Part shown: in pieces, positions 41,244-52,420 of the stretch
Numbering within the stretch: the first letter of the stretch is position 1
How the letters are laid out: every line of letters starts with the position of its first letter
Assembly: GCA_965215045.1 (NCBI GenBank)
Contig: OZ244031.1
Location: 1,476,807 to 1,540,806, forward strand
Length of the DNA: 64,000 nucleotides
Direction of reading: 5' to 3'
From: Gammaproteobacteria bacterium
Lineage (GTDB): Bacteria > Pseudomonadota > Gammaproteobacteria > JABABF01
Made by a program: the position numbers and the translations under genes
The notes under the pieces: model-generated
Databases searched by the model: none
The model's input: only the letters and a program-made list of their open reading frames with translations
What the model was told of the DNA's origin: nothing

Positions 41244-43894
41244 ATGCCCCCAAAACCCGCAGACAAGTCCGGCAGGACTGCAAAGTCGCGCTCCCGGCGT
41301 CCCAAGAAAAACGCCGGGGCCGTGGAGCAGTACCGGCACCAGGATAAAAAACGTCCCAACAATCCGCCGGTGGGACTGGTGAACCCGAAGACGGACCCGG
41401 AACAGGGCGAGACACAGAGCTGGCAGCACGACCCGCACCTGGACCCCGAATTGCATTGGACCGGCAAGCGGGAGAAAAGCAGTTTCGAGGTGCCGACGGT
41501 CAGCCTGCATGTGCACGAGCGCATCGACCCCCGCACCATCATCCGCAGTGTCAGCCGGGAACAGGACAGCGATCGTCAGCCCGATATGTTCAGCGAGCGC
41601 CGGCCCCTGCGGGAAGCCATCGAGTTTTATCAGCATCGGGATGGGTGGAGCAATCGGCTGATTGCCGGCGACAGCCTGCTGGTGATGAATTCGCTGCTGG
41701 AGAAGGAGGCACTGGCCGGCAAGCTGCAGATGGCGTACATCGACCCGCCCTATGGCATCAAGTACGGCAGTAATTTCCAACCCTTTGCCAACAAGCGCGA
41801 AGTACAGGATGGCAAGGACGAGGAACTCTCCATCGAGCCGGAGATGATCCAAGCCTATAGAGATACTTGGGCACTCGGCATTCACTCCTACCTGGGCTAC
41901 CTGCGGGACCGCCTGCTGCTGCTGCGGGAACTGCTGCATGAGAGCGGCAGCGTGTTCGTGCAGATCGGCGATGAAAACGTGCACCGCCTGGCCTTGGTAA
42001 TGGATGACGTTTTCGGCGCCGAAAATCGCCTGGCGACCATCACCTTCGCCAGCACCGGCAGTAGTCCGACAAAGTACCTGCCGCAGGTGGAGCATTACCT
42101 GCTCTGGTATGCCAAGGACAAGGGGCAGGCCAAGTACCGGCAATTGTACGAGCACCTCAATCGTGCTGAAATTATCGAGTTGTTCAGCTGGCATGCAATG
42201 GTCGAACTGGAAGACGGCAGCTGCCGCAAGCTGAGTCCCGAGGAACGTTTTGACCCGGACCACTACCTGCCTGAAACAGCGCGCATTTACAGAAGAATGC
42301 CCCTGATCTCTCAGGGCACAGAGACCCACGGTCGTTCTGCACCCTACGAGTGGAACGGCAGAACTTTCTCCTGTGGTAAAAACAGTCAATGGAGAATTTC
42401 CAGGGAAGGACTGGATCGTCTGGCGCAACTAGGACGCTTGGATGCCGCGGAAGGGCAGGCATCATTGGCCTGGAAGAGGTACGAAGACGAGGTGCCGGGC
42501 CGACATATCAATAATCTCTGGCGGAAGCCGATGTCTCCCAGCGATAAAAGATACGTGGTGGAGACGGCGACCAAGGTGGTACAGCGCTGTATGCTCATGA
42601 GCACCGACCCGGGGGACCTGGTGCTTGACATCACCTGCGGCAGCGGCACCACGGCCTACGTGGCCGAGCAGTGGGGGCGGCGCTGGATCAGCTGCGACAC
42701 CTCGCGTGTGGCCCTGACCCTGGCCAAGCAGCGCCTGCTGACCGCCCACTTCGATTATTACCGGCTGGCACATCCGGAGGAAGGCATTGGCAGCGGCCTG
42801 GAATACGAGTATGTGGACACGGTGTCTGCCAAAACCCTGGGTGAGGGTGAGCCGCCGGTGCGGACGGTGCTCTACGATCGCCCGCTGATCGAAGGCCGCA
42901 AGTCGCGCGTCAGCGGCCCGTTCACGGTGGAGGCGGTGCCCGCCCCGCAGGTCGGGAGTTTTGCGGCGACGGAGAGCGAAGCACCGGTCGCCGAAGAAGA
43001 GTTGGCGGATGCGGCGTATGAGCCGGTGGGACGTGCGGGGGAGACCCTGCGCCAGGGCGAATGGCGGGAAGCGCTGTGGCGTTCCGGGGTGCGCGCCAAG
43101 GACGGCAAGAGATTGCGGTTCAGCCGCGTGGAGCCCTTGCTGGGAGCACTGTATATACAGGCCGAGGCGGAGACTGCCTGGGCGGAAAATGGTGGCAATG
43201 GGAGGGGGGGGGGGGGGGGGCGAATACAGCGATACCTGCCGACTGGCAGCCGCAGAGAGTGCTGGCGGTCTTCGGCCCGGAGCATGCCCCTCTTGAACAG
43301 CGCACGGTAGAGAACGCCTGGCACGAGGCGCAAACCCTGGGCACGGATATTCTGCTGTTCTGTGCTTTCCAATTCGACAGCGAGGCGGCCAAGGATATCG
43401 ATGAACTGAGCCCGGCCAAGGTCGGCATGCAATTGCTGAAGGTGCAGATGAACCCCGACCTGCTGACCGGGGACTTGCGCAAAGCGGGCAGCAGCGATCA
43501 GAGTTTCTGGTTGATCGGCCAGCCGGACATCCGGCTGCACCGCCTGGCAGACGACCAGCTACAGGTGGAGGTGCTGGGTTTTGATTACTACGACCCGGAG
43601 GGTGGCGGCCGCATTCAAAGCGGCAGCGACAAGCATATTGCGATGTGGATGTTGGACACCGATTACGATGGTCGGAGTCTCTACCCGGCACAGGTATTTT
43701 TTCCGATGTCGCGGGGCGAGGAATGGAACAAGTTGGAGAAGAACCTCCGTGCCGACATCGACCCGGAGAAGATGGAGGCCTTTCGCGGCACGAAGTCACT
43801 GCCCTTCCGCTTCGGTGAGAACCGGCGTATCGCGGTCAAGATTATTGACGACCGCGGCATCGAATCCGTGCGCATCCTGACGCAGGAACAGTAG
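41244..43894 (+). CDS. mod: Type III R-M Mod-type (beta-class N6A/N4C) DNA methyltransferase, copy 1, frameshifted at a G17 tract
   Basis: Motif IV is IDPPYGIKYGSNF, followed later by motif I [27 protein letters not shown]. The frame changes at 43204-43220. The conserved C-terminal domain continues in ORF 43061..43894. Confidence 0.8.
43204..43220 (+). repeat. homopolymeric G17 tract in mod copy 1
   Basis: Counted directly: ggcaatggga + 17 g + cgaataca. Confidence 0.9.

Positions 43895-52420: not shown

Follow-up and report, generated by a model that had tools for sequence, protein, structure and literature searches.

Three tandem Type III-type mod genes with poly-G tracts behind the methyltransferase core: a candidate phase-variable restriction-modification locus

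A stretch of 64,000 nt (the window, meaning the whole of the DNA that was analysed), part of the 2.08-Mb contig OZ244031.1 of the Gammaproteobacteria bacterium assembly GCA_965215045.1, carries three mod genes of a Type III-type restriction-modification system, arranged head-to-tail on the + strand upstream of a single res gene (49601-52420). In each mod the reading frame breaks inside a long run of G residues that lies behind the methyltransferase (MTase) core. The locus thus raises the question of whether its mods are decaying, are misassembled or are switched, and of what a switch placed so late in the gene would do. We read it, with a probability of about 0.65, as a multi-specificity Type III-type contingency locus that is switched by slipped-strand mispairing.

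Reading frames and selection in the three mod genes

The frames of the three mods were followed through their tracts by three-frame translation. Copy 1, as assembled, is an open reading frame (ORF) of 688 aa (41244..43310, + strand) in which an N-terminal region, motif IV, the target-recognition domain (TRD), motif I, a mid sub-domain and an out-of-frame tail follow one another, with matches to Pfam N6_N4_Mtase at aa 162-495 and to the PADLOC model MTase_III (PDLC03632, 2.4e-138). Its G17 tract (43204..43220) encodes the Gly run of the second of two linkers behind the core, a loop of low predicted local distance difference test (pLDDT) score in the structural model, and its C-terminal domain follows in a shifted frame at 43220..43894 (224 codons, delimited by translation and by a search of representative proteins). 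Copies 2 and 3, on the same strand, are built alike: the ORF of copy 2 has 686 aa (44002..46062), with G24 at 45960..45983 and the shifted C-terminal domain at 45983..46657, and that of copy 3 has 712 aa (46801..48939), with G23 at 48761..48783 and the domain at 48783..49453. From the first tract to the last is a distance of about 5.6 kb.

The upstream frame enters each tract as ..AENGGNG[RK]GGGGG.., and past it the conserved sequence ..PADWQPQRVLAVFGPEHAPLEQ.. runs on in another frame, whereas the assembled N-terminal ORFs stop 24-51 codons past the tract. The frame is restored by +1 or -2 G in copy 1 (in frame at G15 or G18) and by -1 or +2 G in copy 2 (G23 or G26) and copy 3 (G22 or G25); with one G added, removed and removed, respectively, copies 1, 2 and 3 become stop-free genes of 883, 884 and 883 aa. 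The tract lies at codon ~655 of 883, and motif IV (DPPYGIKYGSNF) and motif I are both upstream of it in every copy. Each mod therefore carries what marks a phase-variable mod, a simple sequence repeat (SSR) inside the ORF with a unit that is not a multiple of three, here the mononucleotide runs G17, G24 and G23. The window contains 37 matches to a G12 pattern, where dinucleotide-preserving shuffles predict 0.08, and the only homopolymers of at least 9 bases in the 64 kb are the three mod tracts and a G17 at 37367-37383, all four of them G on the + strand. An initial annotation, made from the letters alone, had given these coordinates and G counts, three mod paralogs with one res, the same frame arithmetic, and both MTase motifs before the tract with a conserved domain after it in a different frame, all of which the sequence and its translations bear out.

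We then compared the three copies with one another. The pairwise identity is 88% between copies 1 and 2, 77% between copies 1 and 3 and 78.5% between copies 2 and 3. Between copies 1 and 2 it falls to 63-80% at aa 271-450, the position of the TRD, and is 93-100% around the MTase motifs. The earlier observation that the differences cluster in the TRD thus holds for this pair but not for copy 3, which has diverged as well in the N-terminal tail, the first linker (linker 1) and the C-terminal domain. The C-terminal domains, though out of frame in the assembly, have ratios of nonsynonymous to synonymous substitution rates (dN/dS; Nei-Gojobori method) of 0.16, 0.21 and 0.23 (0.16-0.21 for the pairs that involve copy 1), at a synonymous divergence (dS) between copies of 0.33-0.87; indeed, by the same method purifying selection extends over all parts of the three mods. 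These values mark the mods as old duplicates that are maintained and not decaying, and, judging from the substitution pattern, all of their parts, the downstream domain included, are evidently still translated. That all three copies are frame-broken in the assembly would also fit pseudogenes, duplicated mods that have been frameshifted and are being lost. However, about 2.65 kb per copy holds no further stop or indel, the single break of each copy falls exactly inside its tract, and selection persists past the breaks, so that this explanation is effectively refuted and was rejected.

The tracts as such are real, being present in independent assemblies. A search with the C-terminal domain of copy 1 led, through a 94%-identical protein, to a 7.2-kb contig of a diverged strain (ENA ERZ25070786; L161), which aligns to window positions 41875-49082 with 5.5% substitutions. 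In this noisy assembly the contig has tracts at the same three sites, G16, G21 and G20 where the window has G17, G24 and G23. Three long, intrinsically unstable tracts have thus been kept at identical positions across the paralogs and in a diverged strain, which is a robust observation; together with the purifying selection downstream, it makes the tracts look like maintained contingency elements, in line with the phase variation that the initial annotation had suggested. The further claim that all three mods are truncated is correct for the assembly but need not carry over to the biological state, as long-read assemblies do not size G runs of 17-24 bases reliably. The contig also differs from the window by in-frame indels of 3, 6, 9-15 and 18 nt at its positions 3049-3160, 4082 and 6646 (window 44914-45020, 45946 and 48522), which fall in plastic regions, namely the TRD region of copy 2, the flank of the copy 2 tract and linker 1 of copy 3.

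The fused Mod family and its linkers

To which family do these proteins belong? The only Pfam match of the corrected Mod is N6_N4_Mtase (PF01555, 2e-27, aa 162-495), and the order of its motifs is that of the beta class, with DPPYG at aa 167 (motif IV), the TRD, and CGSGTT at aa 465 (motif I). Its nearest solved structures, by sequence and by fold, are the Type III Mods 6k0w, EcoP15I (4zcf) and Mbo45V (7dsu); the full-length AlphaFold model of the Mod is poor (pLDDT 54) and was used only to confirm the EcoP15I Mod chains as the top fold match. The 939-aa Res, a superfamily 2 (SF2) helicase with a C-terminal PD-(D/E)xK nuclease, is intact, with GSGKT, DEAH and PD..EIK motifs in its translation. 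It matches NCBIfam NF046055, 'BPTD_3080 family restriction endonuclease', with 1040.7 bits over aa 6-933 (equivalog cutoff 800) and Pfam ResIII at 5.5e-9, has a TnsA-like endonuclease match at aa 811-908, and is hit weakly (4.9e-9) by the PADLOC model REase_III. A beta-class Mod, a Res of this domain composition and adjacent, co-oriented mod and res genes are marks of Type III systems, which in their biochemistry are also characterised by a Mod2Res1 complex, by ATP-dependent cleavage that requires unmethylated sites in inverse orientation, and by methylation of one strand. Because of the Pfam, PADLOC, structural and NF046055 matches we assign the system, at the level of homology, to a distinct Type III-type family with a larger Mod; the mod paralogs and the res had been called Type III from the outset.

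The Res family is named after a Bordetella pertussis locus tag, and a search of the literature on BPTD_3080 found none. For B. pertussis, just one Type III system is listed, and its predicted product is N4-methylcytosine (m4C) (Murray et al. 2021). By analogy, BPTD_3080 could be linked with Bpe564I, and the Mods of the window could be m4C enzymes. A blastn search of E. coli genomes with res gave no match that would tie the family to Eco86II-type m4C systems, and a tblastn search of plasmids returned only generically annotated homologues of at most 51% identity.

The region behind the core was modelled separately. With a diverse alignment, aa 556-883 gave a confident model (pLDDT 83, predicted template modelling score (pTM) 0.77) whose confidence is low only at two linkers, the second being the Gly run, and in which the mid sub-domain, encoded before the tract, is packed with the C-terminal domain. 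No Pfam or NCBIfam model covers this region, and a Foldseek search of the model against the PDB returned nothing significant (best E-value 0.014); the C-terminal domain (CTD) of EcoP15I Mod was not among the matches, and the weak RPB5 and MspJI matches were not significant. The C-terminal domain of copy 1 has 1927 representative matches, which mostly form the C-terminus of ~800-880-aa proteins, and the shorter matches mostly look like fragments. In one 355-aa homologue from this search (P0126), the domain is interrupted midway by an insert of ~150 aa.

The relatives of the whole protein bear on whether the domain on either side of the tract was once a gene of its own. A search of 5.8 billion proteins yielded thousands of relatives. 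The best 120, the window's own fragments aside, are all uninterrupted proteins of 830-1009 aa (mostly 845-880), which cover 84-99% of the corrected fusion (mostly 97-98%) at 58-64% identity. In their alignment the tract glycines sit in gap columns, within a short, variable and indel-rich stretch between a conserved block before the linker (RxGETLRQxxWRDEL...AExET) and the conserved C-terminal domain after it (FGPxHAPLEQ..FQFDxEAAKDIDE..WMLDTDYDGRS..VKIxDDRGIES). Since the orthologues are uninterrupted and the tract falls in this variable inter-domain linker, the fused Mod is the ancestral form. The initial annotation had proposed a survey of orthologues, and these are indeed uninterrupted proteins of ~860 aa that lack the tracts; the contrary case, in which the N- and C-terminal parts would always be separate genes, does not occur, and the motif positions and the alignment uphold that the tracts occupy a linker behind the complete MTase core.

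We also compared 80 related loci in the genomes of bacteria, which represent many phyla, and of some archaea. Each has one full-length mod, with a homologous res adjacent in most, and tandem mods occur in none of these 80 other loci. At several of them (L001, L002, L007, L065 and others) mod and res lie 1-6 kb apart, which suggests that genes have been inserted between them. Three loci (L046, L047 and L048) keep an intact C-terminal domain with no homologous Res within 10 kb, and these mods may be orphan methylases of the family; flagellar genes and genes for SecA and an AIPR protein lie nearby.

Homopolymers recur in the post-core linkers of the family. A single mod that overlaps its res (ENA ERZ25072724; L163) has a G18 at the same junction (HATGIRGGGGGGGRFVASF), in frame; a metagenome-assembled genome (MAG) of Ca. 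Spongiisociaceae (L052) has an in-frame G16 in linker 1, directly behind the FTVEAVPAP motif; and a Rhodothermales MAG (L042) has a C10 in linker 1, at a frameshift. The L163 Mod is 38-45% identical to the Mods of the window, to which tract-less orthologues are 60-64% identical, and because it is the more distant, its tract is most simply explained as an independent gain. A late homopolymer placed in a linker is thus a repeated outcome in this Mod family. However, the alignment columns that tolerate indels are concentrated past the MTase core, where about three quarters of them are found, so that three or four such events are by themselves no proof of selection for the late position. As a separate observation, an Acidimicrobiales MAG (L012) has C23 (8140-8162) and C12 (8206-8217) runs that precede its mod of this family by about 2 kb.

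Proposed slipped-strand switching and its rivals

Homopolymers are known to change in length by slipped-strand mispairing and thereby to switch Type III mods, and SSRs are present in 17.4% of the Type III mods in REBASE. For the locus of the window we envisage one ancestral mod in which a long poly-G was already present, within the flexible linker that joins the mid sub-domain to the conserved ~215-aa C-terminal domain. This gene would have been duplicated twice, with the copies diverging chiefly in the TRD and all staying in front of one shared res. The length of each tract would then be altered by slipped-strand mispairing. One frame class would give the full-length ~883-aa Mod, in which only the number of linker glycines varies, and the other two classes would run into a stop 24-51 codons on and lose the C-terminal domain. 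If the full-length Mod is the form that works with Res, as we infer, each tract would therefore toggle one restriction specificity independently of the others, with up to eight combinations.

Several points weigh against this reading. Switching, with its effects on restriction and methylation, is predicted here from assembled sequences. No close relative for strain comparison was found in genome or metagenome collections besides the diverged contig, which has 15 single-base insertions at short runs and is so noisy that its tract lengths and frames are untrustworthy. The scans for promoters and terminators gave counts no higher than those in shuffled sequence and were uninformative. Furthermore, none of the six tracts in the two assemblies of the window lineage is in frame, which may mean that the lengths are systematically wrong or that the tracts are read through some decoding mechanism and not switched by DNA slippage. 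With respect to relatives, a metagenome scan with the 5' flank of the tract had no match, and the best matches of the neighbouring pepP, in gammaproteobacterial MAGs, have ~55% identity, with no close relatives for synteny. The same 5'-flank pattern, scanned against genomes, hit one Acidocella MAG, which was set aside as a chance match, being tract-free and in an unrelated context.

A length error would mean that the tracts are real and that their true modal lengths are in frame for one or more of the genes, the Gly run being a tolerated linker. The names of the related contigs are indeed typical of long-read metagenome assemblers, one being labelled 4.40x, the diverged contig is rich in homopolymer indels, and the tracts of L163, of L052 and of a glycosyltransferase gene of the window (see below) are in frame. 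On the other hand, a G run of 17-24 nt is unstable at any modal length, so that an in-frame mode would not abolish switching, and retention of the tracts across paralogs with a dS of up to 0.87 and across strains argues for selection. We therefore regard this explanation as improbable, though a real contender. A decoding mechanism, for its part, would be RNA polymerase slippage or ribosomal frameshifting, which would make both isoforms constitutively and leave no heritable switch. The tracts are longer than the RNA-DNA hybrid, and with no in-frame instance in the window lineage the downstream domains are nevertheless under purifying selection, as such recoding would predict. The in-frame tracts of L163 and L052 speak against it, and bacterial transcriptional slippage is, to our knowledge, established mainly for A/T runs; we hold recoding to be very improbable.

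If the tracts do switch the mods by slippage, the question becomes what the truncated form does. The initial annotation had supposed that only restriction is toggled. In this proposal the truncated Mod keeps its N-terminal domain (NTD), core and TRD, dimerises and methylates but cannot recruit Res, so that the genome is always protected. The MTase motifs and the TRD do all precede the tract; in EcoP15I the two Mods dimerise by their NTD and MTase domains and can methylate unaided, whereas extensive contacts with Res are made by the CTD of ModA; and the post-core module of the window Mods is at the same linear position as this CTD, which makes the idea reasonable. Moreover, three independent lineages have put their tracts behind the core and not in the variable N-terminal tail.

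Against these points, neither the EcoP15I CTD nor any solved fold is detectably similar to the C-terminal module (best Foldseek E-value 0.014, as above), and the three family members without a Res within 10 kb still keep this module. The Mods of two characterised, diverged Type III systems failed to methylate unless Res was present. The packing of the mid sub-domain with the C-terminal domain means that truncation may leave a misfolded stub, and the post-core position is also predicted by neutral tolerance, given where the indel-tolerant columns lie. We would add, by our own reasoning, that if all three truncated Mods methylated constitutively, phages that escape would bear all three marks, and independent toggling would then add little protection at the level of the population. 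On balance the restriction-only switch is a tentative idea, more doubtful than not in our view. That such a 'safe' switch, with methylation retained, arose by convergence in the linkers behind the core, in L163, L052 and L042 as in the window lineage, is likewise a speculative suggestion to which we lend limited credence.

The distinction matters for the cell. A phase-variable restriction-modification system carries a hazard, in that the cell's own genome is unmethylated when the system is switched back on. A post-core switch could, if the restriction-only idea is true, drop restriction yet keep protection and so avoid this hazard. Even if the truncated Mod is inactive, the locus as we read it would place SSR-driven switching of several Type III specificities not only in pathogens with small genomes but also in an uncultured gammaproteobacterium of high GC content, environmental or symbiotic, and in a large, poorly characterised Mod/Res family. 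As annotation pipelines would label such genes pseudogenes, they risk being overlooked.

Genomic setting and known systems

The fourth long tract, the G17 at 37367-37383, lies in frame within a GT4-family glycosyltransferase ORF (37042-38538), where it encodes GRGGGGGRP. A tandem GT4 paralog (38572-40074), 85% identical, is tract-free and reads GRG----RP at this place. The gene with the tract looks like a phase-variable surface-glycosylation gene that arose when a tract expanded in one member of a duplicated pair, and it shows that poly-G tracts are used in this genome in genes of the typical contingency kind. Between the GT4 pair and the mod array are 1.1 kb without domain matches (40075-41243). 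The GT4 pair, this segment and the mod/res array together form a stretch (~35600-52420) with a GC content of 0.57-0.62, compared with 0.65-0.69 in the flanks, and it is bounded by tRNA-Leu(CAG) at 35616-35702 and by pepP, whose start overlaps the stop of res at 52417-52420. It has the look of an island that was acquired by insertion immediately before a pepP-ubiH-ubi hydroxylase operon. The ends of the window (1-4000 and 62001-64000) also have a lower GC content, down to 0.52-0.56 against ~0.65 elsewhere.

Among known systems, the closest in layout are those of mycoplasmas. Mycoplasma bovis PG45 has, in Mbo45ORF167P (Mbo45V), one res with three tandem mods that carry 11, 14 and 24 AG repeats and are about 70% identical to one another, and M. 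pulmonis has a similar cluster. Like the locus of the window, both combine a single res with three tandem mods that have an SSR at the same position, conserved ends and variable TRDs. The suggestion of the initial annotation that the architecture is undescribed is therefore not supported, as three SSR-bearing mods with one res were already on record. In the mycoplasmas, however, the SSR is an AG dinucleotide that starts, in related mods, at nt 320, upstream of the core and followed by conserved stops, so that the OFF state makes no methylase. In the window it is a poly-G of 17-24 nt at codon ~655 of 883, behind the core and not upstream of it, in a ~860-aa Mod family with an extra C-terminal module, partnered by a BPTD_3080-family Res and found in a high-GC uncultured gammaproteobacterium.

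The phasevarions of modA, modB, modD and modM and of the Helicobacter pylori modH, which has a poly-G, share with the window an SSR within mod that shifts the frame, alleles that differ in the TRD and several independent switches per genome. They differ in that they belong to host-adapted pathogens, have Mods of ~600-700 aa, and have had their switching and regulons demonstrated by experiment, whereas the locus of the window is known from its sequence; its tracts are also much longer and precede only an accessory domain. EcoP15I (Mod2Res1) shares the beta-class order of NTD, MTase, TRD, MTase and C-terminal module, and a Res composed of an SF2 helicase and a PD-(D/E)xK nuclease. Its Mod, however, has 644 aa with a CTD of ~105 aa, to which the ~330 aa behind the core of the window Mods have no detectable fold match. 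The Type III m4C subgroup (Eco86II, Bpe564I; Murray et al. 2021) resembles the family in consisting of diverged Type III Mod/Res pairs. Taken together, the locus most likely belongs to a familiar class, the phase-variable restriction-modification loci, but has its switch unusually late in the gene; it is set apart by the position of the tract behind the MTase core and by its distinct family of Mods, which have an additional C-terminal module.

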